A stretch of 26,992 nucleotides of DNA, from the IMG/VR virus record IMGVR_UViG_2778261667_000015. One strand, written 5' to 3'. The translations under genes and the position numbers were made by a program. The notes under the pieces are model-generated. The model saw only the letters and a program-made list of their open reading frames with translations, was not told the DNA's origin and did not search any database. The DNA comes from a virus (lineage: Duplodnaviria > Heunggongvirae > Uroviricota > Caudoviricetes). Of this stretch, positions 2,995 through 16,859 are shown piece after piece (within the stretch, counting starts at the first letter, position 1; each line of letters opens with the position of its first letter).

Positions 2995-3206
2995 CAGAAC
3001 CTCGCCAGCCGGTACCCGGGATGCCCCCGTCGTCGTGTAATCAGAGCCGCAAGGCGGCGCTCCCACTCCTGCCGTCCCTGCCGGATCTCAGATAAGTTTT
3101 CCATGGTCATCTGCTGACCATTAAAGGTGACGGATTTTCCGTCCAGCACCGCCATTTCAGCTTCCGTATAACGCTGAATCATGGCTTCGATATCATTCTG
3201 GTTCAT
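2994..3206 (-). CDS. Head-tail joining / head completion protein gpW-like
   Basis: 70-72 aa ORF between terminase and portal; C-terminal ...RRRGHPGY resembles lambda gpW ...RRRGPAGF. ATG at 3206 overlaps the terminase TGA (ATGA) and has GGAGG 6 nt upstream. Confidence 0.6.
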   Translation of the reverse strand: MNQNDIEAMIQRYTEAEMAVLDGKSVTFNGQQMTMENLSEIRQGRQEWERRLAALITRRRGHPGYRLARF

Positions 3207-5302
3207 AACCATCCTCCGGAAGTCAGCCAGGGGTTAACATCGTCAGTTACTGTTTTCTTCCGTTTTTGTTTTTTAACAGGCGTGGATACCGGTTCCGGTG
3301 AGGGTGACGGTTCGGTACTGTCCGGGACACACTCCAGCCAGGTTTCCCGGCTCGCCCATTCCGGTGCATCCGGCCAGCGGATCTTTTCGTATCCATGCAG
3401 AATGACCAGAGCCTCGGCATACACCATCAGGTCAAAGGCTTCGTTGGCACCGCGACCCGGCTTACTCCATTTCCCGTCACTGCTCCGCTCTTCATACGTC
3501 AGTTCGTCGTAAAACCAGCTCCCCAGCCAGTCAGGGAAATGCACATAGCCGGGACCTGGCGAGTCACGCCATAACGCGTTATTCACCCGGTCTTTCAGTG
3601 CATCCGTCTGAAGAAGCCAGAGCGGCACATCACCTGCGGCCTGCGCCCGTCGGCCCGTTCGTCCGGTGTTATCAGGGAATGTACGGGTGATCAGTTTTGC
3701 GCGCCGGATGCTGTCGCCCTTAAACAGGTAAATACGTTTACCAAGGCCATCACGACGGCAACGACGCCAGAATTTATAGGCATTATCAGTGACCCCGTCT
3801 TCACCGCCGGAGTCCACCGCCATTGCCATCAGTCGCATTTGTTGAGAAGGATCGGAGGCCAGCGGCCAGCTTTTATGAAAAACATCCGTCAGCAGGACAT
3901 CCCAGTCTTCCGGATAGCTGGCCGGATCAATTCGCTGGCTCTCCCCGTCGCAGTCACTGCGCAATGACTGCGTGATATTGTAACGATCAATAATCCAGCG
4001 TTCGCCACGACTGCCATAGCCCGTTACCTGAACCACAAAACGGCGATGACGTCCCGCCTGCACATCCACTGTCGCCACAAGGAAATTAACGCCATCCGGC
4101 ACACTGCGGGAAGGAACTGGCTCTGCCCGCTGCTCAAGCAGTTCACTTTTTCGTTGCTCCATGCTGGCACGAGGAAGATAAGGCAATCCCCAGTCGGTGT
4201 TGATAACCGCCCTGAGTGTTTCTTCGCTTCCTGTCGCTTCATACTCCTGTTCTGCAGTCAGTAATTTGTAAACCAGTTGCGCCCAGGTCTGATACGCAGC
4301 AGCTGGCCCTTCCATCCAGAAACTGGCGATACGGGAGCGGCGCGGTTCACCGGAAACGTTGCCGTTACGATCAATGACCTGACCTTCACGCAACCAGACT
4401 CCTGCACTATTGAGCTCACGCTTTTTCTCCGCAGTGATAATGCCGCTGCAGTGCGGGCAAAGTAGATACGCCGCCTCACTGGCTTTAAAGGGATCCGGTT
4501 CATTACGGTAGCCGGTCATGGCATCCATAGCTGGCTGAAAATATTCACCGCAGTGCGGACATGGCCAGTACCAGCGGCGGCGGTCACCACGATTGTAAAG
4601 GGAAAGAATACCAGTCGTCGGTGGCGCTTCATGAGGCGACTTACGTCGCCATTTGCTGTCGCAGATGTCACGTCCCGGCGAGCTCTCCACCAGAGTCATC
4701 CCGGCGGACATAAATGTGGTGGTACGTTTTGAGGCCAAGGAGAAACCATCACCCTCGCTGTCGATATTCTCCGGAAAACGGTCGTAATCGGTTAAGGCGA
4801 CAAACCGGTAATCCGACGACGACATAATGTTGACCGAGGGCCAACCAATTTTAAGGAACGAGCCATCCCTGAACGTCTTATCATGGACATTATTGTCGTT
4901 ACGACGTGGACTCATTCTTTTCTTTACCGCCGCACTGCTTCTGAACGTTCTGTCGAGGCGCTTTTTAGAATGCTCGCGGGCCTTATCTTCGGTCATCTGC
5001 ACAACGAGCATGTCCGAAGGATCGCAAACGATGGTATAGACAATCCATCCATCGATCAGACCAATGGTCTTCCCTGTTCGCGCAGGACCAACAAAAATCA
5101 CCGCATCGTATTCACGCGATGCCAGGCAGTTCATGGGCTCAATGATGTAGGGTGTCAGTTCAGGATCCCATGGCACCGAGTTACCAGCCCCCTTGGGAAC
5201 ACGCATGAATTTTTTAACAGCCTCCGAAATCGGCATGCGACGTGGTGGGGAAAATCCTGCCGATATGTCCCTTCCCAAATTTCGGGCTGATGAAAAACCC
5301 AT
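3203..5302 (-). CDS. Terminase large subunit (gpA family)
   Basis: 699-aa ORF with a Walker-A-like VGPARTGKT and overall lambda gpA-like layout; strong SD (GGAGG) before the ATG at 5302; follows the small-subunit gene. Confidence 0.9.
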   Translation of the reverse strand: MGFSSARNLGRDISAGFSPPRRMPISEAVKKFMRVPKGAGNSVPWDPELTPYIIEPMNCLASREYDAVIFVGPARTGKTIGLIDGWIVYTIVCDPSDMLVVQMTEDKAREHSKKRLDRTFRSSAAVKKRMSPRRNDNNVHDKTFRDGSFLKIGWPSVNIMSSSDYRFVALTDYDRFPENIDSEGDGFSLASKRTTTFMSAGMTLVESSPGRDICDSKWRRKSPHEAPPTTGILSLYNRGDRRRWYWPCPHCGEYFQPAMDAMTGYRNEPDPFKASEAAYLLCPHCSGIITAEKKRELNSAGVWLREGQVIDRNGNVSGEPRRSRIASFWMEGPAAAYQTWAQLVYKLLTAEQEYEATGSEETLRAVINTDWGLPYLPRASMEQRKSELLEQRAEPVPSRSVPDGVNFLVATVDVQAGRHRRFVVQVTGYGSRGERWIIDRYNITQSLRSDCDGESQRIDPASYPEDWDVLLTDVFHKSWPLASDPSQQMRLMAMAVDSGGEDGVTDNAYKFWRRCRRDGLGKRIYLFKGDSIRRAKLITRTFPDNTGRTGRRAQAAGDVPLWLLQTDALKDRVNNALWRDSPGPGYVHFPDWLGSWFYDELTYEERSSDGKWSKPGRGANEAFDLMVYAEALVILHGYEKIRWPDAPEWASRETWLECVPDSTEPSPSPEPVSTPVKKQKRKKTVTDDVNPWLTSGGWL

Positions 5303-6902: not shown

Positions 6903-7313
6903 ATGGCTCAGGCTGCCATTTTTAAAGAAATATTCGCTCAAGTGCGTAAAGATTTAAACTGTGAATTATTTTATTCTGAGCTAAAACGTCACAATGTCTC
7001 ACTTTATATTTACTATTTAGCCACAGATAATATTCACATTGTGTTAGAAAACGACAACATAGTGTTAGTAAAAGGACTCAAAAAGGTTGTAAATGTTAAA
7101 TTCTCCAGAAACAAACATCTTATAGAGACCTCCTATAATAAGTTGAAATCAAAAGAAATCACATTTCAACAATACAGGGAAAATCTTGCTAAAGCAGGAG
7201 TTTTCCGATGGGTTACAAATATCCATGAACACCAAAGATATTACTATACCTTTGATAACTCATTACTATTTACTGAAAGCATCCAGAAAACTACACAAAT
7301 CTTACCACGCTAA
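6903..7313 (+). CDS. ydfO: DUF1398-family protein YdfO-like
   Basis: ORF 6888..7313; ATG at 6903 preceded by GGAAGG at 7 nt; sequence [19 protein letters not shown]...[14 protein letters not shown]... matches my recollection of K-12 YdfO. Confidence 0.65.
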
Positions 7314-7464
7314 ACCATAACGTCCGGCTTCTCTCACTCCTGAGCCGGACTGCATTGGTTTAATAAAAACCATCAACAATTGTGATTTAGATATTCGGAA
7401 CCATTCAAATATAACAAAACCCCGTAAAAACGAGGTTTATGGATAAATTTTATTATTGAATACA

Positions 7465-7638
7465 TCAGATTAAATTAATCTTGACATCATAGCTTTCAAG
7501 ACCCGTCATTTTTTCCCGTGCGGTAAACTGAATACTGGTAACTTCTTTCCCGGTCTTTTTCTTAAGTTCAATAATTTTTTTTGTTATATATTCAGAAATA
7601 TCTGCTTCTGCTTTTGTTTTTAAGTCTTCAATATTCAT
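7465..7638 (-). CDS. gnsB: GnsB-like small protein (57 aa)
   Basis: Below the ORF-track size cut-off; manual translation gives MNIEDLKTKAEADISEYITKKIIELKKKTGKEVTSIQFTAREKMTGLESYDVKINLI, closely resembling GnsA/GnsB; GAGGA 5 nt upstream of the ATG. Confidence 0.75.
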   Translation of the reverse strand: MNIEDLKTKAEADISEYITKKIIELKKKTGKEVTSIQFTAREKMTGLESYDVKINLI

Positions 7639-7810
7639 CATTTCCTCTTTTAGTCTGTTATGACTTTCCAGTTACACTGGTAAGTCGATTATATGGTGCA
7701 AACGTGTAAAAGATAAGATGAAACATCGCAATAATCAACATACGATAGTCTAAATTTTACACAAACAGACAAAGAGAATTTTTCTGAATTATCAATGCAA
7801 TAGCATCAAA

Positions 7811-7966
7811 TCAACTCAAGAGCCTTATTGCTGCTTCCAGAATTTCTTCTGAAGTAACATGCCGATCCGCGGCTACATAAATGACTTTATGATCTCCGGT
7901 CAGAGATGGAAACCCTGCGGCCATTACAGTAAGGTGTGTTTTTTCGCCATTTGGATATTCACGCAT
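7811..7966 (-). CDS. ynfN: YnfN-like small protein (51 aa)
   Basis: ORF 7811..8002; internal ATG at 7966 yields 51 aa (MREYPNGEKTHLTV...), the length and position of Qin ynfN between gnsB and cspI. Confidence 0.5.
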   Translation of the reverse strand: MREYPNGEKTHLTVMAAGFPSLTGDHKVIYVAADRHVTSEEILEAAIRLLS

Positions 7967-8313
7967 GATGGTGTTAACTCCAGTCATCGCTGGCACTACC
8001 ACTGCTGGTTCAGAGTTAAAAAAAACTATGATTTTTTTTCATGATGTTACCGTAGTATGTGAGTATCCATCGAATAGACACCAAGCAAAAAAGCTCCCGA
8101 AGGAGCCTTCATTTTCACTTTTTTAAATCCAACGACAGACGGCTGGCATTTAAGTATTGTGAAATATTATCAAATGTAATCATCATTGATTTACAAAAGA
8201 TACATTTTGCCCCGAAAGGATTCATGTCAGAAACATCAAAAGATGATGTTCTATACTGGGAACCATGACAACACGGGCATCTAAAGTGAATATGGTTTGT
8301 AATATTGTCTACC

Positions 8314-8526: not shown

Positions 8527-8888
8527 AATTATTACCTTTTGAAGAAATTAGCCCTTGGGCAGAATGGTCCGAAAAAAAATATCAGAGAGAAAAACCAACA
8601 AGGAAATCTCAAGAGGTACAAATAATAAAATTATAACAATGACTGCTTCAGATAAATTTGTAACAAACCAGAACACCATTAACGCATGATTAACCACCCA
8701 TAGCAAGGATTACTTTTGTAAAGAAAAACACAGCAATGAAAGAATAGCTTTATTTATTAATAAAACGTGTCATTCTGATTAAGACCTTTTATCTTACCCT
8801 TAAGATTTCAGGAATTTTGACTCATGGAAGAGTCCTTTTTATTTAAATTTTACATTCAGCGATGTAAATGTTCCGATTTAATATTACC

Positions 8889-9912
<1,024 letters not shown>

Positions 9913-9916
<4 letters not shown>

Positions 9917-10224
9917 ATATATTTATGATGAGGACGCTCGTGCTTATTGGCAGGATTTTCAATCTTAAAGGAGTACTGATGCTGCAGATAAGACTCAACT
10001 TTTTCTGACAATTTTTCTGCTACTTCCAGGAAGACTTGCCGGACGCTCCTTCTGGCTGCTGCCTCATAAAACTCCAGCGCAGCTCCTTCAACACGGTCCA
10101 TGGCGACATCCAGGTCAAAAATTTCACCGTCAAAGCGTTCTTTGTCCTGTAAGGCTACAGTTACCGTAACTTTATTCTCAAAATTACGGACTCCTTTCAC
10201 AACCAGTTCATAGTCTTGAGTCAT
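9913..10224 (-). CDS. ydfR: YdfR-like (DUF1327) protein
   Basis: 103-aa ORF between holin and endolysin, same size and position as Qin ydfR; stop overlaps the lysozyme start (ATGA). Confidence 0.6.
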
Positions 10225-10228
10225 TGGA

Positions 10229-10444
10229 TTACTCTCCTCTCGCAGCCTTACGCCTGTCTTCTTTAATCTTGAAATAAAGATTTGTCAGATACGTCAGCAG
10301 GCCAAAAACCAGGCTACCCAGCACACCGATTGCAGCCCACTGTGACGGAGTTACTTTATCGAGTAACTGCAATGCCCAGAAACCAGCATTACCCGCCGAT
10401 GTGCCATAGGCAACACCTGTTGTTAACTTATCCATTGATTTCAT
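10229..10444 (-). CDS. essQ: Class II holin, S21-like pinholin
   Basis: ORF 10229..10519; internal ATG at 10444 gives 71 aa [71 protein letters not shown] with a dual-start motif (M1/M4) and two TM segments, closely matching phage 21 S. Confidence 0.8.
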
Positions 10445-10663
10445 ATCCTCACCCCGATGTACACGGATGGTGCAATATGTTTGAAAAGATCGGAGTCTAC
10501 GGGGTAGTTTTGACAGCACACGTTGTTCTCAACGGCGCTAAAAAAACATACACATTAAAAATGTGGGTAATTATTTTGAAAGAAAGTCATATATAAAATA
10601 ATAATACGAGAAATGTTTTCATATTTAGTGTACTGTATACGGCCATTTATACAGGAAAAGCCT

Positions 10664-10834
10664 ATGTCAGAACGTAAAGACTCAAAATCACGCCGTAATT
10701 ATCTCGTTAAATGTTCCTGCCCAAACTGCACCCAAGAGTCAGAACACAGTTTTTCAAGAGTACAAAAAGGTGCCCTTTTGATCTGCCCTCATTGCAACAA
10801 AGTATTCCAGACAAATCTTAAAGCTGTAGCCTGA
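10664..10834 (+). CDS. ynfU: Small zinc-ribbon protein (CPNC...CPHC)
   Basis: ORF 10613..10834; ATG at 10664 with AGGA upstream gives 56 aa with two CxxC pairs. Symbol is a tentative recollection of a Qin small Zn-binding protein. Confidence 0.45.
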   Translation: MSERKDSKSRRNYLVKCSCPNCTQESEHSFSRVQKGALLICPHCNKVFQTNLKAVA

Positions 10835-10891
10835 TTGATTTTATTAGTAACAAGTATTTTTTATATTTTAATAATATATTTAAAGCAGATA

Positions 10892-10917
10892 ATAAAAAAC
10901 CCGCCTGAGCGGGTTTG
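10892..10917 (-). terminator. Rho-independent terminator hairpin, probably bidirectional
   Basis: aaacccgc-ctga-gcgggttt stem-loop flanked by an A-run on the plus strand, i.e. a T-run on the minus strand; lies downstream of cspB. Confidence 0.5.
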
Positions 10918-11197
10918 AGATTGTGGTGCTTTTTGTGGGAGTCATCCACTTACGCACTTTGTTTTGCGATGCCAGCAGTTAGCTTCTGCTGTGAAACTAT
11001 TCATGCAGCAAACCTGCACTTCACCACAATGGTTAGCATACTTTTCCTGATTAAGATTTTGCCAAATATGCTGGCCATTGTTTCATGTATTGGACCTCCT
11101 TACTTTTTATTAAAGAGATCCAATATTCACTACTCTGTCCGTATCTCTACTCAGGCATCAGCCTTCTTCGTTATCGTATACAGACGAGCGATGAATT

Positions 11198-11413
11198 TTA
11201 ATCAGTAATGATGACATTTACTGCTGCAGGACCTTTAGCACCACTCTCTATAGAGAAGGTAACCTTTTGACCTTCAAATAAGGTTCGATAATTATCATTC
11301 TGAATCGCAGAAAAATGCACAAACACATCTTTACTACCATCAACAGGAGAAATAAAGCCGAAACCTTTATCAGCGTTAAACCATTTTACTAAACCAGTCA
11401 TTTTATTTGACAT
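11198..11413 (-). CDS. cspB: Cold-shock protein, CspA family
   Basis: 71 aa [71 protein letters not shown]. Confidence 0.85.
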
Positions 11414-11713
11414 TCTACATTCCTTAACTTGAGCCTTTCGGCATAAATGGTTTGTATAACAGAAACGACTTCGTACTTAATTGGAGAGACTCAAAGAAGG
11501 AATAAGTGAATAACACCTGAAATGAGAACTGCTTTAGTAAACTACTTCGTATATCGTCTGTTCTTCAAACCGACGCAATCATTAACGCATAGTTGAACAT
11601 ATGAAGCAATGTTTATTTTAGACATCCAGCCATCTTCAACCCCATCAAAAAACTATAGCTTTCTTCAGGAACGTGTGTATAGTGCGCCAAGTTATCAGTA
11701 TTAAGGAATTTTT

Positions 11714-11926
11714 TTGTCCCGTAAAATGACAGGAATTGTCAAAACCTTTGACGGCAAAAGCGGCAAGGGTCTTATCACCCCATCCGATGGTCGTATCGAT
11801 GTCCAGCTTCATGTTTCAGCGCTCAATCTCCGCGATGCAGAAGAAATTACCACCGGATTACGCGTGGAATTTTGCCGGATAAATGGTCTGCGTGGCCCTT
11901 CAGCTGCCAATGTTTACCTTTCATGA
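11714..11926 (+). CDS. cspF: Divergent CspA-family protein
   Basis: 70 aa [39 protein letters not shown]...; starts at TTG 11714 with AAGGA 6 nt upstream (ATG alternative at 11726); divergent from cspB as in Qin. Confidence 0.75.
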
Positions 11927-11980
11927 GCTATATTAAAGCTTTAATTTCAGGCCCCATCGGATCACACATGGAGAGTTTTT

Positions 11981-12070
11981 ATGAATAACCCCGTCTGTCT
12001 TGATGACTGGTTGATTGGCTTTAAAAGCTTATGCTGTACTTTGGCCGTAATAGCTCTGCTAATAATATAA
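11981..12070 (+). CDS. Candidate 29-aa small hydrophobic protein
   Basis: Manual [32 protein letters not shown] with GGAG 7-8 nt upstream; short polar N-terminus and hydrophobic C-terminus like small membrane peptides. Unverified. Confidence 0.25.
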
Positions 12071-12218
12071 TAAGCAGACTCATTGTGTTTAGGGACATTG
12101 TACTGGAAGAAAACATTTTAAACATCAGGCAAATAACCAAGTCACCAGCTAAATAATAAGTTAACAGACATGAGTCCCGGGATGAGATTCAACATTACCA
12201 TTGCCCCATTTAAAGCAC

Positions 12219-12250
12219 AAAACCCGCTCATCAGCGGGTTTTCTACTTTT
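12219..12250 (+). terminator. Rho-independent terminator
   Basis: cccgc-tcatca-gcggg stem followed by a TTTT run; downstream of cspF. Confidence 0.5.
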
Positions 12251-12347
12251 TCTTAACGTCGGGTATACAAAGCCCATCGTTGAAAAAATTTTATCCATAT
12301 TTTTTGAAAAATGCAAGCATCACGTTACCATCTTCATTGAAAAACCT

Positions 12348-12410
12348 TTATCGTGTTACTTTTATCAATTGCACTTCAGCATAGAGTTATCCCAGACAGC
12401 ACTTTAAAGA
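12348..12410 (-). pseudogene. Diverged relic of an antiterminator Q gene 3' end
   Basis: Minus-strand translation of 12348-12386 gives ...YAEVQLIKVTR-stop, against the intact Q C-terminus ...AYAEVQLRKVTR-stop at 14042; the flanking DNA aligns at roughly 75% identity with 14042-14110. Confidence 0.5.
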
Positions 12411-12695
12411 CTTCTACATTACACACACCTTGTCTCCCCTTCTCGTCATATCTGCAAGACCGATATGCATGACGCAGTACATACGCTGAACTGCTTTATC
12501 CATCTGCATATTCTAGTGCTAAAGCGACTTCAGTAGCAGAAGCAAAATTCTGCTACTGTGCCAAACAGGAGTAAACGTCATTTTATGTAATGTTGATTGA
12601 GTGGTCATAGTATCACCTCAATAACAACTCTCCGCCCTATCATTGAAAGCATATCTGCTATAATTAAAAAGCCACTTAACATCAGGACTTCAAAC

Positions 12696-12881
12696 ATGAC
12701 TTCAAATCAATCTGAAAACGAAATAGTTAATACTGTCAAAAAATATGCATCATGTGCTGACGATGCTTTGCAGGGAGGCAAAGAAAACGTTAAAGATAAA
12801 TTTAGAAATTATCCACTGACTAGCGTGGTGGTTGCTCTAAGCATAGGGTTAACGCTTGGTTTTATTATTGGCAGAAAATAA
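12696..12881 (+). CDS. DUF883 (ElaB/YqjD/YgaM)-like C-tail-anchored small protein
   Basis: ORF 12597..12881; from ATG 12696 it gives 61 aa ending ...FRNYPLTSVVVALSIGLTLGFIIGRK, the characteristic DUF883 C-terminal anchor. Confidence 0.5.
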   Translation: MTSNQSENEIVNTVKKYASCADDALQGGKENVKDKFRNYPLTSVVVALSIGLTLGFIIGRK

Positions 12882-12939
12882 TCTTAAGCCTCCCATAAGT
12901 CGTACACAATCACATCTGCCAATTAATGTTCCATTAGTA

Positions 12940-12965
12940 AAAAACCACCTCCTGTGGAGGTGGTT
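12940..12965 (-). terminator. Rho-independent terminator, probably bidirectional
   Basis: ccacctcc-tgt-ggaggtgg stem with AAAAAA on the plus-strand 5' side (T-run on the minus strand); 53 nt downstream of the 39-aa minus ORF and 60 nt downstream of the plus-strand DUF883 gene. Confidence 0.5.
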
Positions 12966-13017
12966 TAAGGATAGCAACAAAACACAACCTACTTTAAACG
13001 GCTATATTCTGCTATAT

Positions 13018-13137
13018 CTAAATAATAGGATCTCTTTTATCATCCGGTGAAAAAGGGTTCAATGGTTGCCCCTCATCAGGACGCTCAACGGGCTCATCAT
13101 CAGGCTTACGGTCATCAAAATCTGGATGTTCTGACAT
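13018..13137 (-). CDS. Candidate 39-aa acidic, proline-rich small protein
   Basis: Codon-by-codon manual translation: MSEHPDFDDRKPDDEPVERPDEGQPLNPFSPDDKRDPII; GGGTGGA SD-like sequence upstream; terminator follows. Confidence 0.3.
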   Translation of the reverse strand: MSEHPDFDDRKPDDEPVERPDEGQPLNPFSPDDKRDPII

Positions 13138-13172
13138 ATTCCACCCTAGTATTTTTATGCAGGAAAGATTAT

Positions 13173-13280
13173 TTACTCTTTCCGGTTGTCTTTTTTATTA
13201 TCCTTACCCTTACTATCCTCATTGTTTTTATTCCTGTCATGAGATTTTTCATTTGAATCACTTACATATAATGTATTCAT
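13173..13280 (-). CDS. Candidate 35-aa highly charged, lysine-rich small protein
   Basis: Manual translation MNTLYVSDSNEKSHDRNKNNEDSKGKDNKKDNRKE; GGAG 7 nt upstream of the ATG; a perfect TATAAT sits ~45 nt further upstream on the same strand. Confidence 0.3.
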   Translation of the reverse strand: MNTLYVSDSNEKSHDRNKNNEDSKGKDNKKDNRKE

Positions 13281-13314
13281 GGGGACTCCAGTTTTTTAAC
13301 AGCACAATGCTGTA

Positions 13315-13360
13315 TCTGTAATTATAGATGCAATTAATCATTATGATATGTATGTTTCAT
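13315..13360 (-). promoter_or_regulatory. Putative sigma70 promoter for the small-ORF pair
   Basis: Minus strand reads ...attaattgcatcTATAATtacag...; the -35 is weak or undefined. Confidence 0.25.
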
Positions 13361-14041
13361 GCACAAATCAGAAACGCATCTAGTGCTTTAATTAATATGG
13401 ATTTTATTGCTGTAGATTTACAAAAATTTTCATAATTAACCAGCAATATAAGACAAATATCTCATAACATGAGGAAAATCAAGCTCATTTAAAGCAATTT
13501 ATAATTTTCATCCTACTGTTTTCCCTGCACTGCCAACACAAGTTTCATCGCAACACTCTGACAAGACACCTATAAAATCAGTTTCGTTATCACCTTAATT
13601 TTCTTCATGGGTAACAAACCGGTAATACATCGATAGCCAGATTTCCGGCGTAAGCCATTTATTTGCAGCCTGATTGATGCGCGTTACTGTTACCTCTTCC
13701 CTGCATCAGGATGGCTTCTCCAGATGATATGGTTAATCACACTGGAACATTCACGCATAACCGTTTCCTTCATATCCTGCCGTTTTAGCATGTCTTTTCC
13801 CCTTCTTGTTAATATCAATAACTAACACAAATCTAAAAAAGCCAGCAATGTAAAAAAACTGCATTCACGGCAACCATAATGGTTACCGTTCTGCACAAAG
13901 TTTATGTCCACAAAAAAACCACTCTGCGCGGCTTATTGATATTTTCCACAGGTATGCATATAAGGCTCATCATTGGAAAACTCTTTGCACGTTTCCTTAG
14001 AAAATACAATCGTTATGTCGCCATCGTTCGGTGAAAATCAT

Positions 14042-14794
14042 TTATCTCGTCACTTTTCTTAATTGCACCTCAGCATATGCTTCTTCCTGCCAGCACTTTG
14101 TAACCAGTTTATCAATGACATCTGCATATCCTTTGTACCACTGATAATCCGTCAGGTCTGGTACCAGCTTCTGGACATGACACCGCGCCAGTGTCGTTGG
14201 TAAACGACTAAACCGGTTTCCATTGCAACGCCCACAAACCTTATAAACAGGCGTGCTATGAAGCCGGGTTCTTTTTTCATCCAGGACAATACCTTTCCCC
14301 TTACACCCTCTGCACGCTGTGCTGACTTCTCCCTTACCATGGCAATGCTGACATAGTTCCTTCACCCACTCTTCCTTGATAACAGATTCCCCACTTCTGG
14401 AGTGTTTCACCACTTCGCGCAATACATTATGAAATCCAGTACCAGCACAATACTCACAGCGAGCCTTACTTGCCGCAGACCTGGAATAATCAGCAAAGGC
14501 AAAATTCACAAGGTAAGGGATGATCTGTAACCGGATTTCTTCACTCAATTTGTTCAATGTCGGATTATCCATTGCCATCGCGTAATTGAGCAGACCTTCA
14601 ATCGCAAACTGAGGATCCTGAACACCAACTTTTGCCAGGAATAAGGCAAAACCAAGCGGAGCTTTCGACTGCACCATCCCCTGCGCAGCCATCACATCTG
14701 TTATTGTTAAACCACCCGAGCCTGTCGCCGGTGCGTCATCACTCAATTTTGGAGATTTTGGGGAGTAATATTTTGGTAAAGCTTCAAGGTTCAT
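14042..14794 (-). CDS. quuQ: Late-gene antitermination protein Q
   Basis: 250 aa with multiple CxxC zinc-binding motifs (CEYCAGTG, CQHCHGKG, CRGCKGKG, CGRCNG) typical of Q antiterminators; ATG at 14794. Confidence 0.85.
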   Translation of the reverse strand: MNLEALPKYYSPKSPKLSDDAPATGSGGLTITDVMAAQGMVQSKAPLGFALFLAKVGVQDPQFAIEGLLNYAMAMDNPTLNKLSEEIRLQIIPYLVNFAFADYSRSAASKARCEYCAGTGFHNVLREVVKHSRSGESVIKEEWVKELCQHCHGKGEVSTACRGCKGKGIVLDEKRTRLHSTPVYKVCGRCNGNRFSRLPTTLARCHVQKLVPDLTDYQWYKGYADVIDKLVTKCWQEEAYAEVQLRKVTR

Positions 14795-16203: not shown

Positions 16204-16455
16204 TTATTCTTCTGCAAAAGCTGAAAAGCCTGCTTTTATTCCGATCTCTTTCAGTGCCTGTAATGAAGTGACAAACTCACCTTCGCGCAAGATAAATCCG
16301 TCTGTCACTCGACCATCCACAAAATTAATTAACGCAGCCCCATTCTTTCGCAAACACATAATGCGGTAATGACTAACAAGATTTCCATTTTCAACGCACA
16401 CAGCATAGAGGCCATCTTCACAAAAAATTTTACGCAGTTCTTCGATGTTCATCAT
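16204..16455 (-). CDS. rem: Rem-like small protein (83 aa)
   Basis: 83-aa ORF (MMNIEELRKIFCEDG...) with GGAAGG upstream; size and position next to hok as for Qin rem. Confidence 0.5.
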   Translation of the reverse strand: MMNIEELRKIFCEDGLYAVCVENGNLVSHYRIMCLRKNGAALINFVDGRVTDGFILREGEFVTSLQALKEIGIKAGFSAFAEE

Positions 16456-16570
16456 CAGAATCCTTCCGGATAATTAGCTCTCCCCTTTAAGGGACCATCC
16501 CTCTTATCCCTGCGCGCTACTTAAGTATTTTTGATTCTATTCCGGCACCGTCCAGAACTTCAAACGCGTT

Positions 16571-16604
16571 GAAAATAAAAACAAAAACCCGCCGAAGCGG
16601 GTTA
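16571..16604 (-). terminator. Rho-independent terminator of the hok transcript
   Basis: Minus strand reads cccgc-ttcg-gcggg followed by TTTTTGTTTTTATTTT. Confidence 0.6.
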
Positions 16605-16671
16605 AGTGCGGGTGCGTTGAGGATGCCTGCCACATCAGAGGTGGCGAGGGATTTCTCCCTCGCCGGGTCTC

Positions 16672-16827
16672 TTACTCCTCAGGTTCGTAAGCTGTGAAGA
16701 CAGCGACCTCCGTCTGGCCGGTTCGGATTCGTACCTCGCAGAGGTCTTTCCTCGTTACCAGTGCCGTCACTATGACGGTTAAACAAATGACGATCAGGGC
16801 GATTAACATCGCCTTTTGCTGCTTCAT
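16672..16827 (-). CDS. hokD: Hok-family type I toxin (51 aa); the overlapping mok frame extends to 16884
   Basis: MKQQKAMLIALIVICLTVIVTALVTRKDLCEVRIRTGQTEVAVFTAYEPEE is a canonical Hok; the 70-aa ORF 16672..16884 is the mok-like upstream frame. Confidence 0.85.
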   Translation of the reverse strand: MKQQKAMLIALIVICLTVIVTALVTRKDLCEVRIRTGQTEVAVFTAYEPEE

Positions 16828-16859
16828 AGCCTGCTTCTCCTTGCCTTTCGGCACGTAAG

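Follow-up and report, generated by a model that had tools for sequence, protein, structure and literature searches.

The window, the whole stretch of 26,992 nt that was analysed, is a Qin-like lambdoid prophage of Escherichia coli in which the end of the antiterminator gene Q and the late-control elements behind it are present twice. One set of these elements (copy B) directly follows the intact Q gene and the other (copy A) follows the remnant of a second, diverged Q, the DNA between 12323 and 14013 being referred to below as the islet. The features of the two copies, in the direction of Q transcription, are the following.

14042–14794, minus strand: intact antiterminator Q gene, 250 aa, ydfT/quuQ type, Q-lambda family (Pfam, PDB, protein identity)
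14015–14025, minus strand: conserved post-Q box GATGGCGACAT of copy B (alignment, per-column mismatch map)
13966–14009, minus strand: degraded late promoter of copy B (alignment with six canonical promoters of the Q family)
13916–13934, minus strand: weak terminator-like hairpin and U-tract (U7) of copy B, homologous to tR' (scan, folding)
12348–12405, minus strand: 3' remnant of a second, diverged Q, last 18 codons and stop, with one internal stop (alignment, translation)
12322–12332, minus strand: conserved post-Q box of copy A in a diverged version, GATGGTAACGT (per-column mismatch map)
12273–12316, minus strand: canonical late promoter pR' and pause element of copy A (alignment with canonical promoters)
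12212–12249, minus strand: strong intrinsic terminator tR' of copy A (−23.9 kcal/mol, z −8.2; terminator scan)

The protein encoded by the intact gene matches Pfam PF03589 (E 4e-50, 168 bits against a cut-off of 26.7), carries in addition a DnaJ-type zinc-finger stretch and matches Q-lambda in the PDB (7UBM) with an E value of 2.5e-35. It is 97–98% identical to the Q proteins of SfV, Ayreon, O157 146N4 and Ec4114, and 93% identical to K-12 QuuQ. Assignment to the phage 82 type of Q was rejected, as the protein belongs to PF03589 and the pause element of phage 82 (+9 to +17, GCC) is missing.

The first-pass annotation had proposed that the 3' end of Q is duplicated in a diverged form, and pairwise alignment confirmed it: positions 12333–12405 and 14027–14099 pair without gaps over 73 nt at a spacing of 1694, with 56 of 73 positions identical (77%), whereas the best matches to the 73-mer on either strand in 300 first-order Markov simulations of the window average 35.6 (sd 1.3) and never exceed 40. 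Gapped homology continues for about 135 nt beyond the stop codon (12212–12347 against 13916–14041), and the duplicated part is the entire unit of Q end, late promoter and terminator, beyond the Q end alone, conserved box, promoter, pause element and terminator being homologous in both copies. The remnant translates as ...KCCLG, stop, LYAEVQLIKVTR, stop, the counterpart in the intact Q being ...KCWQEEAYAEVQLRKVTR, stop. The terminal residues formerly quoted as still encoded here are right; with an in-frame stop 12 codons ahead of its end and no start codon, however, the remnant is dead.

Behind this remnant, the late promoter of copy A comprises TTGCAT (12311–12316), the 17-nt spacer TTTTCAAAAAATATGGA, TAAAAT (12288–12293) and the pause element AACGAT GGG (12273–12281). 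As a whole this promoter unit is identical to that of K-12, and its −35 hexamer and spacer are identical in SfV, Ayreon, O157 146N4 and Ec4114, while lambda pR' aligns with its −10, 6-nt gap and AACGATGGG. Among contigs that carry the islet but have diverged, copy A keeps its −35, spacer, −10, pause element and the core of its hairpin, and neighbouring bases vary.

At the corresponding places copy B has TTGTAT (14004–14009), AAAGAG at the −10 position (13981–13986) and AATGAT GAG at the pause-element position (13966–13974). Compared with the six canonical promoters it shows 31 private mismatches in 97 columns, and nine of its 17 spacer positions are changed relative to the invariant sequence given above. 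The promoter-like features that it keeps are TTG at the −35 and TG two bases 5' of the −10 position; there is also an alternative AAGAGT at 18-nt spacing, and a pause-like AATGAT is found in canonical copy-A alleles as well. Its hairpin folds with −8.5 kcal/mol (z −1.5), a value reached by 17 of 200 shuffles, as compared with −19.6 for the tR' of SfV. As judged from these motifs, copy B could retain promoter function. A simple promoter scan returned no more sites than in shuffles, the method being blind to late promoters because TTGCAT scores just 3/6.

A switch point shared by the two copies

The two copies are reciprocal chimeras which switch at one point, about 30 nt past the Q stop codon: copy A joins a diverged Q end to a canonical promoter, pause element and strong terminator, and copy B joins a canonical Q end to a degraded promoter and a weak hairpin. 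The private mismatches of copy A are confined to columns up to 99 (12323), and from column 100 (12322) to the last column there are none with respect to the canonical set, the change from diverged to canonical falling at 12323/12322. In copy B the private mismatches begin at column 103 (14012), apart from two isolated earlier exceptions in columns 83 and 89, and the change from canonical to diverged falls at 14013/14012, just 3' of the box. This box, GATGG(C/T)(G/A)AC(A/G)T, precedes the switch and is present in lambda too, as GATGGCAACAT; identity near the proposed crossover is short, consisting of GAAGATGG and the box.

Comparison with the Qin prophage of K-12, which lacks the islet, places this switch within its surroundings. 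Identity to K-12 is close to 100% up to 12316 and resumes at 16357, the block between being diverged. A blastn match to K-12 runs across the remnant to 12405, but the three-way view indicates that true identity between K-12 and copy A stops at 12316, K-12 having its own Q end. The nearly identical flanks, the diverged block and the switch at the same alignment columns thus bear out the earlier suggestion of a recombination scar at a conserved sequence behind Q.

Gene fragments, cassette and distribution

Between the two copies the islet contains gene fragments and a cassette of three small genes, listed here in the same direction.

13759–13791, minus strand: orf47-like (SfV) 5' fragment, 11 codons, MLKRQDMKETV (DNA homology to SfV)
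13492–13690, minus strand: ren-like 3' fragment, residues 29–100 of 101, with in-frame stops and a frameshift (blastn, tblastn)
13173–13280, minus strand: orf35, 35 aa, highly charged, GGAG ribosome-binding site, first cassette gene
13018–13137, minus strand: orf39, 39 aa, acidic, Pro-rich, second cassette gene
12942–12966, bidirectional: hairpin terminator between the convergent small ORFs and p61, U6 tract on the minus strand (folding)
12696–12881, plus strand: p61, gene of a 61-aa tail-anchored small membrane protein (WP_000203370; phrog_11629, E 5e-47)
12426–12608, minus strand: Rha-like antirepressor 5' fragment, codons 1–61 of about 203, two in-frame stops (blastn, tblastn)

Contiguous DNA homology to SfV extends from 14030 to 13761 at 74%. 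The ren-like fragment is 73–75% identical to ren of lambdoid prophages by blastn and is matched by the Ren of PhiR26_1 in tblastn (E 2e-8), and the Rha-like fragment is 79% identical to Rha/P22AR genes (tblastn E 3e-8). The divergence from the E. coli counterparts is in fact similar for every diverged piece, identity amounting to 77–80% for the Q end and 68–74% for the stretch from promoter to orf47. All fragments lie on the Q strand and in the order found in PhiR26_1 (ren, antisense cargo, rha, nin genes, Q), and they alternate between 5' and 3' parts (orf47 5', ren 3', Rha 5', Q 3'), a pattern expected from two deletions. Since the interval consists mostly of gene fragments in their natural phage order, it is a collapsed segment of a second lambdoid phage, and the cassette, to judge from its place in this order, would formerly have occupied the slot between ren and rha of that phage. 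The islet is AT-rich, as previously described (GC 0.29–0.42), but this does not set it apart, because the 2 kb to its left have a GC content of 0.34–0.45.

Concerning the cassette, syntenic homologues of orf35 (48% over 27 aa, with weak E values of 0.07–0.14) are found in an Enterobacter contig and in the phage-like scaffold L038, and those of orf39 reach 52–55% identity (E 5e-7 to 5e-8). The three genes keep their order in Enterobacter wuhouensis and in L038, where they are located between Rz and gnsB/Nu1; this recurrence upholds the view that genuine phage cargo makes up the core of the interval. The third gene, p61, is antisense to Q and to late transcription, has an AGGA ribosome-binding site and is preceded by a putative promoter with an extended −10, TGCTATAAT (TGnTATAAT), read directly from the sequence at 12656–12664. 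Its family is rare, with 8 matches among 1.8 billion representatives. The former label of DUF883-like gene does not hold: p61 scores 12.3 bits against DUF883_C, where the cut-off is 27 (E 0.14; best family member E 0.0048), no match to the N-terminal DUF883 domain was found with the Pfam models, and the likeness to DUF883 proteins (ElaB/YqjD/YgaM) is restricted to the C-terminal glycine-zipper anchor. As to the two terminators reported in the islet, that at 12942–12966 is strong in both directions (−17.3 kcal/mol on the minus strand and −17.8 on the plus strand), and the one at 13916–13934 is the weak hairpin of copy B. None of the three cassette proteins matches a PADLOC defence model, and NCBIfam gave no match for the small proteins. 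Consensus matches alone provide the cassette with a predicted promoter and terminator of its own; it is present in some and absent from other similar phages and recurs in other phage contexts, as morons do. As phage cargo, this set of three small-protein genes is rare, mobile and uncharacterised.

Exactly 40 of 5426 complete E. coli genomes carry the islet, and the same count holds for the window's Q allele and for the Q-end remnant; all three also occur in two isolated phages, PhiR63_1 and HannyBb, and in 16 IMG/VR contigs. The arrangement is present in STEC lineages such as O121:H19, whereas the islet is absent from more than 2400 genomes that have the window's Q family. Its presence in the two isolated phages makes it compatible with lytic growth. 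Across the cassette the islet copies are 99–100% identical, and the diverged block is almost invariant among carriers (0–2 differences per 50 nt), with the exception of a 32-nt deletion within the ren-like fragment of contigs L018 and L022; in these two and in L026, both the Q allele and the copy-A promoter allele are unlike those of the window. Within the islet the Rfam scan found no RNA family, its sole match being the cspA thermoregulator at cspB; the tRNA gene search found none, and the search of a plasmid collection returned nothing beyond one 47-nt hairpin match.

Two other origins are difficult to reconcile with these data. A transposable or integrative element that duplicates its target on insertion would leave direct repeats bounding a discrete block that only some relatives possess, as is the case here. 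Yet neither a gene for a transposase or integrase nor terminal inverted repeats were found, repeats of 73–190 nt with only 77% identity are unlike a target-site duplication, and the 1.69-kb block is seen at this one genomic position, none being found at unrelated chromosomal sites; such an element is therefore the most far-fetched of the origins considered. A local tandem duplication of the Q end and late promoter, followed by decay of the redundant halves in place, would account for the fact that the decayed parts are precisely the redundant ones (the Q remnant of copy A, and the promoter and terminator of copy B) and for changes in the copy-B hairpin that go without compensation. We consider it very improbable, given a divergence of 23–32% in a context, non-coding DNA included, that is about 100% identical to K-12, the presence in the interval of ren and Rha fragments foreign to the local sequence, and the lack of less-diverged intermediates in any of the islet carriers (40 genomes, 2 phages and 16 IMG/VR contigs).

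Origin of the double Q end

The explanation that we favour, and that we regard as reasonably probable, is that the two Q ends are both junctions of one old recombination between two phages, with late-promoter function residing at copy A. One parent, C, would be a canonical phage of the Qin/SfV type, and the other, D, a lambdoid phage about 20–30% diverged from C. We infer the following order of events. A crossover between C and D at the short conserved box, some 17–27 nt past the Q stop codon, would have generated a product in which Q of C, the box and pR' of D are followed by the D genome and then by Q of D, the box, pR' of C and the late genes. Two later deletions, one from the interior of orf47 to the interior of ren and the other from the interior of rha to a point 58 nt before the end of the D-type Q, would have stripped nearly all of D, and what would be left is a residue of 1.69 kb (about 12323–14013): four dead gene fragments, the late promoter and terminator in their diverged form, and a single cargo unit, still intact, which in D would have lain between ren and rha. 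The arrangement is ordinary phage mosaicism and the mechanism is of a known kind: relaxed homologous recombination across short, diverged stretches is a documented route to lambdoid mosaics, Qin included (PMC3945230).

A parent of lineage D, that is a full Q with the end seen in copy A and a promoter of the copy-B type behind it, was not found, and for this reason it is the geometry alone from which the cointegrate step is deduced. The predicted parental junction gave 0 matches both as an exact pattern in IMG/VR and as a gapped pattern in metagenomes. Copy-A-specific 19- and 26-mers occurred in IMG/VR in islet-bearing contigs only, the blastn matches of copy A in phages and E. coli genomes were all in islet carriers, and a copy-A pattern that excluded the islet context yielded one chance match in metagenomes; among the phages, E. 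coli genomes and IMG/VR records searched, the Q remnant occurs solely together with the islet. A copy-B-specific 26-mer and a degenerate orf47 pattern were likewise confined to islet contexts.

The same fragments could also have arisen by an illegitimate, out-of-register crossover of two phage genomes, within orf47 of one and within ren of the other, that duplicated the stretch from ren to orf47, with a later deletion from rha to Q; separate allele replacements on each flank would then have produced the pattern of canonical and diverged sequence. This predicts an identical fragment order and the same alternation of 5' and 3' parts, and flank alleles do swap close to the ends of the block. It requires, on the other hand, two independent replacements ending within a few columns of each other in a homologous stretch of about 190 nt, a coincidence of about 1 in 15 if the box is not a hot spot of recombination, and we hold this course of events to be quite unlikely.

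Late promoter, cassette expression and known systems

If the recombination between C and D left function at copy A, the Q protein made from 14042–14794 would load on RNA polymerase paused at the canonical pR' (12273–12316), 1.7 kb 3' of its own gene, and the Q-modified polymerase would read through tR' (12212–12249) into cspB, the lysis genes and the structural genes, promoter copy B being vestigial or weak. The cassette would then be a self-contained moron, with p61 expressed on the opposite strand from its own extended −10 promoter, orf35 and orf39 on the Q strand, and the bidirectional terminator separating them from p61; its expression would be independent of Q, or would depend at most on read-through from the early operon.

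It had been proposed, to the contrary, that the islet is a simple insertion into the slot that carries stx, with expression coupled to Q. In this model copy B responds to Q as an active promoter, induction leads through Q antitermination to expression of those islet genes that lie on the Q strand, and copy A is a second late promoter in tandem. Indeed, the islet does separate Q from the lysis genes, late transcription runs in the direction of orf35 and orf39, and copy B is homologous to a late promoter and terminator unit, of which it keeps the TTG, the TG 5' of the −10 position, the AATGAT pause-like element and the U7 tract. However, copy B has AAAGAG instead of a conserved −10, GAG in the place of GGG and a weak hairpin, and its nine changed spacer positions are located where proteins of the Q-lambda type bind, although the Q protein is 97–98% identical to Qs that use the canonical spacer. 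Moreover, p61 is antisense, and an islet made up mostly of dead fragments of early-operon genes is a poor fit to the insertion of cargo. We thus consider the model unlikely: since the working late promoter is probably downstream of the cargo and p61 is antisense with what appears to be its own promoter, stx-like expression coupled to Q is unsupported.

Rather doubtful, too, is the idea that the 1.69-kb block has been kept as a functional unit and not as debris. If it were so, the cassette, with its tail-anchored membrane protein and two peptides of high charge, would move among cargo slots of lambdoid phages in different genera and could confer on the lysogen a benefit related to stress or to phage exclusion. 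Copy B could then be a partial Q-loading or decoy site, acting in a Q-dependent antisense shut-off of p61 at induction or in tuning the timing of late transcription.

Whichever its function, the locus is a worked example of how lambdoid genomes are rebuilt, in which both junctions of an exchange would survive around a partner genome whittled down to 1.7 kb. It also carries a warning for annotation, as DNA directly 3' of a Q gene is not necessarily controlled by Q, given that the late promoter in use can be kilobases distant and follow a dead Q end. It further offers a natural test case for the distance tolerated between a Q gene and its loading site, and what seems to be a natural pair of intact and degraded loading sites for a single Q protein.

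In Stx phages, stx is located downstream of pR'-tR' and on the late strand. The islet shares with this cargo its position, as non-essential DNA between Q and the lysis genes, but it lies upstream of the canonical pR'-tR' (12212–12316), the degraded copy being the only one that precedes it; its largest gene runs antisense, and Q dependence is unlikely. Morons and cargo of the ren-rha slot in the early right operon, exemplified by emrE (after ren, DLP12) and PD-lambda-1 (before rha, PhiR26_1), share with the islet the succession of ren, cargo with an antisense gene and rha, as well as a unit with its own promoter (here putative) and terminator; the cargo here differs in consisting of three tiny proteins without a PADLOC match. 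In Ayreon and in an O157:H7 prophage a tR' hairpin duplication flanks a 141-aa ORF and is likewise a direct repeat of a late-control piece after Q, but there the repeat is 24 nt long and 96–100% identical, with the additional DNA situated downstream of the promoter.

A Q cassette comprises the Q gene, pR', a sigma-dependent pause element and a terminator (Yin et al. 2022, PMC9388147). In the Q-lambda family the promoter directly follows Q, its −10-like pause element occupies +1 to +6 and GGG occupies +7 to +9, and Q, bound between −35 and −10, lets polymerase pass terminators. With this Q-lambda-type cassette the locus shares a PF03589 Q and, in copy A, the −10, the 6-nt gap and AACGATGGG, followed by an intrinsic terminator. 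It differs in that the canonical promoter is separated from Q by 1.7 kb of foreign DNA and stands behind a dead Q end, a degraded second copy filling the usual place, and in that the spacer, the presumed Q-binding element, is not that of lambda. Finally, in common with the mosaic joints of lambdoid phages, with their traces of homologous recombination, described by De Paepe et al. 2014 (PMC3945230), also in Qin-type prophages, stretches of intermediate identity (77–80%) flank segments of very high identity, and exchange involves small gene fragments more frequently than entire modules; whereas the usual outcome there is a clean replacement, here both reciprocal junctions would have been retained with the collapsed partner genome between them.

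The duplicated Q end and its prophage setting

An E. coli prophage, lambdoid and Qin-like, makes up the window, which is 100% identical to strain CH4811 over 11900-14200. Along the minus strand its gene order is rem, a 92-aa ORF, ydfU (DUF968), Q and the islet, and past the islet cspF (antisense), cspB, ynfU (antisense), holin, ydfR, lysozyme and Rz. The Q gene (14042-14794, minus strand) encodes a PF03589 protein (168 bits) which matches the solved Q-lambda structure 7UBM (E 2.5e-35), carries an extra DnaJ-type zinc-finger stretch and can be assigned by sequence to the Q-lambda family, as the Q families have been defined (PMC9388147); Q82-family identity (PF06323) was rejected, the protein being PF03589. 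Elsewhere in the prophage, the cspB leader and gene match the cspA thermoregulator RNA family over its full length (11151-11574, minus strand; 159.7 bits, E 7e-43), and the Rz-like gene rzpQ (~8888-9386, minus strand) is frameshifted according to the CH4811 record annotation, the remaining lysis cassette being intact. Homology to K-12 Qin ends after hokD, from ~16842 onward, and at the place of K-12 relE/relB the matching record annotates a gene for epoxyqueuosine reductase QueH and a truncated methyltransferase.

A first-pass annotation had claimed a duplicate of the Q 3' end at 12348, and this is borne out by a direct repeat between 12333-12405 and 14027-14099 (73 nt, 77% identical, no gaps). 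Indeed, the 56 matching positions exceed the best 73-mer matches found on both strands of 300 Markov-simulated windows (mean 35.6, sd 1.3, max 40), and the translation is that of a Q 3' end: the lower copy reads ...KCCLG-stop-LYAEVQLIKVTR-stop and the intact Q end ...KCWQEEAYAEVQLRKVTR-stop. With its internal stop, the lower copy is what remains of a Q gene's 3' end and is dead. When gaps are allowed, homology runs ~135 nt beyond the stop codon, reaching 12212 and 13916, and the repeated unit comprises the Q end and the entire late-control region. We refer to the copy behind the dead Q end as copy A and to that behind the intact Q as copy B.

The islet, that is the DNA between both copies, is absent from K-12 Qin, in which cspF and Q are ~420 bp apart. 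Identity to K-12 is ~100% over 8900-12316, 75-98% over 13958 to ~16350 and ~100% again over 16357-16841, a profile which places the islet at the edge of a ~4-kb diverged block within a nearly identical phage. Separate searches for the islet, for this Q allele at ≥99% identity, for the remnant and for the whole interval each retrieved exactly 40 of 5426 complete genomes. The arrangement is also present in the isolated phages PhiR63_1 and HannyBb and in 16 of 16 IMG/VR contigs, over whatever part of it each of them covers. Relatives with the same content and no second Q end, which the first-pass annotation itself had named as speaking against its reading, were looked for, and none was found among the 40 genomes, the two phages and the 16 contigs, so that this objection falls.

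Late-control units as reciprocal chimeras

The Q end and the DNA that follows it were taken from K-12, SfV, Ayreon, an O157:H7 prophage and strain 4114 and aligned to both window copies. The late unit is strongly conserved in this Q family, and consists of the stop codon, a box GATGGCGACAT, TTGCAT, a 17-nt spacer TTTTCAAAAAATATGGA shared without change by the five comparison sequences, TAAGAT or TAAAAT, 6 nt, AACGATGGG, and a strong hairpin with its U-tract. Lambda pR' aligns base for base with the family's -10, 6-nt gap and AACGATGGG; the sigma-dependent pause element of lambda is AACGAT, with GGG at +7 to +9 (PMC5001585), and Q binds between -35 and -10 (PMC9388147). The post-Q box itself, in the general form GATGG(C/T)(G/A)AC(A/G)T and located ~17-27 nt past the Q stop (window 14015-14025 and 12322-12332; lambda, L036, ~725-735), is common to lambda and the Qin/SfV family despite their only distantly related Q genes. 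It may act as a linker at module boundaries or serve some other function.

Late-control unit in the two copies
Whole unit: copy A, 12212-12316, intact, identical to K-12; copy B, 13916-14009, degraded
-35 hexamer: copy A, TTGCAT; copy B, TTGTAT
17-nt spacer: copy A, canonical; copy B, 9 of 17 positions changed
-10 position: copy A, TAAAAT; copy B, AAAGAG
Pause-element position: copy A, AACGAT GGG; copy B, AATGAT GAG
Hairpin: copy A, -23.9 kcal/mol; copy B, -8.5 kcal/mol (17 of 200 shuffles as good)

For comparison, the SfV tR' folds at -19.6 kcal/mol. Since the window Q shares 97-98% identity with Qs from phages using the canonical spacer, copy A is most likely the loading site cognate to it. 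Among islet-bearing contigs, the more diverged ones (L018, L022 and L026) differ at ~10 nearby bases and yet have the copy A -35, spacer, -10, pause element and hairpin core unchanged, the pattern that would be expected if a working promoter were under selection. We consider it unlikely that copy B functions as a Q-responsive promoter.

Each alignment column was then scored against the canonical sequence set for private mismatches. Those of copy A occur only through column 99 (12323), with zero beyond, whereas copy B has essentially none through column 102 (14013) and then 31 over the 97 columns that follow; both switch points are directly past the conserved box. Canonical sequence makes up the copy B Q end and the copy A promoter, diverged sequence the copy A Q end and the copy B promoter, and copy B is collinear with SfV pR'-tR'-orf47 from 14030 to 13761 (74% identity).

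The most likely history that we infer is a crossover followed by deletions: a diverged phage would have been joined to a canonical Qin-like prophage by one crossover at the post-Q box, which would automatically yield both reciprocal junctions, and later deletions would have stripped the incoming genome almost completely. It is known that phage recombinases can act on short sequences diverged by 12% or more and exchange DNA with Qin (PMC3945230). The parent lineage of the diverged phage was searched for in IMG/VR, metagenomes, phages and E. coli genomes and not found, and for this reason an out-of-register illegitimate crossover with subsequent flank replacements retains a place, as a less probable alternative. 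Local duplication followed by decay is unlikely, as the flanks are ~100% identical to K-12 and yet there is 23-32% divergence between the copies. The content of the interval excludes a transposon.

Contents of the interval and the small-protein cassette

Features of the interval
13791-13759, Q strand: first 11 codons of an orf47-like gene
13690-13492, Q strand: ren-like gene, final 72 of its 101 codons, interrupted by stops and a frameshift
Between the ren-like fragment and the small ORFs: AT-rich stretch
13280-13173 and 13137-13018, Q strand: two small ORFs
12942-12966: bidirectional terminator
12696-12881, antisense to Q: 61-aa gene (p61)
12608-12426, Q strand: first 61 codons of a Rha-like gene, with two stops
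12404-12351, Q strand: last 18 codons of Q

The fragment order matches the natural one of PhiR26_1 (P - ren - antisense cargo - rha - nin genes - Q - late promoter), so that the islet is to be read as an early-right segment that has collapsed and that belonged to a second lambdoid phage. The 5' and 3' fragments alternate twice over, which would be the expected outcome of two deletions, and the 20-30% divergence of all pieces from their E. coli counterparts fits one foreign source. A 32-nt deletion within the ren-like fragment (window 13635-13666) in L018 and L022 is consistent with this fragment being non-functional.

The region had been read at first pass as a modular-exchange scar holding cargo, in a slot like that of stx and with Q-coupled expression. 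The scar at a conserved linker and the cargo nature of the interval core stand; the likeness to the stx slot and the coupling to Q are unsupported, since the cargo probably arrived within the second phage's ren-rha region, is found on the upstream side of the canonical late promoter and has its main gene antisense. These two keep some room because copy B retains some promoter-like features.

The three small genes (p61, orf39 and orf35, of 61, 39 and 35 aa) form a real, mobile unit. Homologues in the same order and orientation occur in an Enterobacter wuhouensis contig (L033) and a phage-like metagenome scaffold (L038), with 34% identity for p61 (E 1e-12), 52-55% for orf39 (E ~1e-7) and 48%, a weak match, for orf35; in L038 they lie between Rz and gnsB/terminase, a different cargo slot. 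This scaffold (3000-5059 and 7066-8201) carries a Q21-family Q, then an antisense Ser/Thr protein kinase gene, and an extra 65-aa ORF accompanies the cassette between Rz and the GnsAB-type toxin gene and terminase Nu1. The terminator region (window 12936-12982) has a 47-nt match of 91.5% identity at one spot in a Salmonella conjugative plasmid and in the ECOR29 chromosome, and is the only cassette part found outside islet carriers in the plasmid and E. coli genome collections.

The p61 product is a predicted tail-anchored membrane peptide, whose match to DUF883 is sub-threshold, the resemblance being confined to the glycine-zipper anchor. Its gene has a predicted extended -10 promoter, TGCTATAAT, on the strand opposite late transcription, and an AGGA ribosome-binding site. 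The family is rare (8 matches in 1.8 billion representatives), with lone homologues in Leclercia, Atlantibacter and Silvania chromosomes. The Silvania hatchlandensis homologue (L032, 4431-7064; 57% identical) adjoins other small genes and, as identified by sequence inspection, a YmgE/YeaQ-type small membrane protein gene, a hint that the family may have a stress-protein neighbourhood. The two charged peptides, orf35 and orf39, did not fit defence, NCBIfam or Pfam models.

Relation to known systems

The mechanism is already well known, comprising mosaicism by relaxed homologous recombination, morons and pseudogene debris. What is noteworthy is that both reciprocal junctions are preserved, that 1.7 kb separate the Q gene from its probable loading site in phages still growing, and that a natural pair of loading sites, one intact and one degraded, is available for one Q protein. 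A second case of extra DNA between copies of part of the late-control unit is found in Ayreon and O157:H7 146N4, in which the 24-nt tR' hairpin that closely follows Q occurs as a direct repeat (2652-2675 and 3329-3352 in Ayreon, L013; 2784-2807 and 3461-3484 in 146N4, L014), the repeats being 677 nt apart, 96-100% identical, and enclosing a 141-aa ORF and a small ORF.
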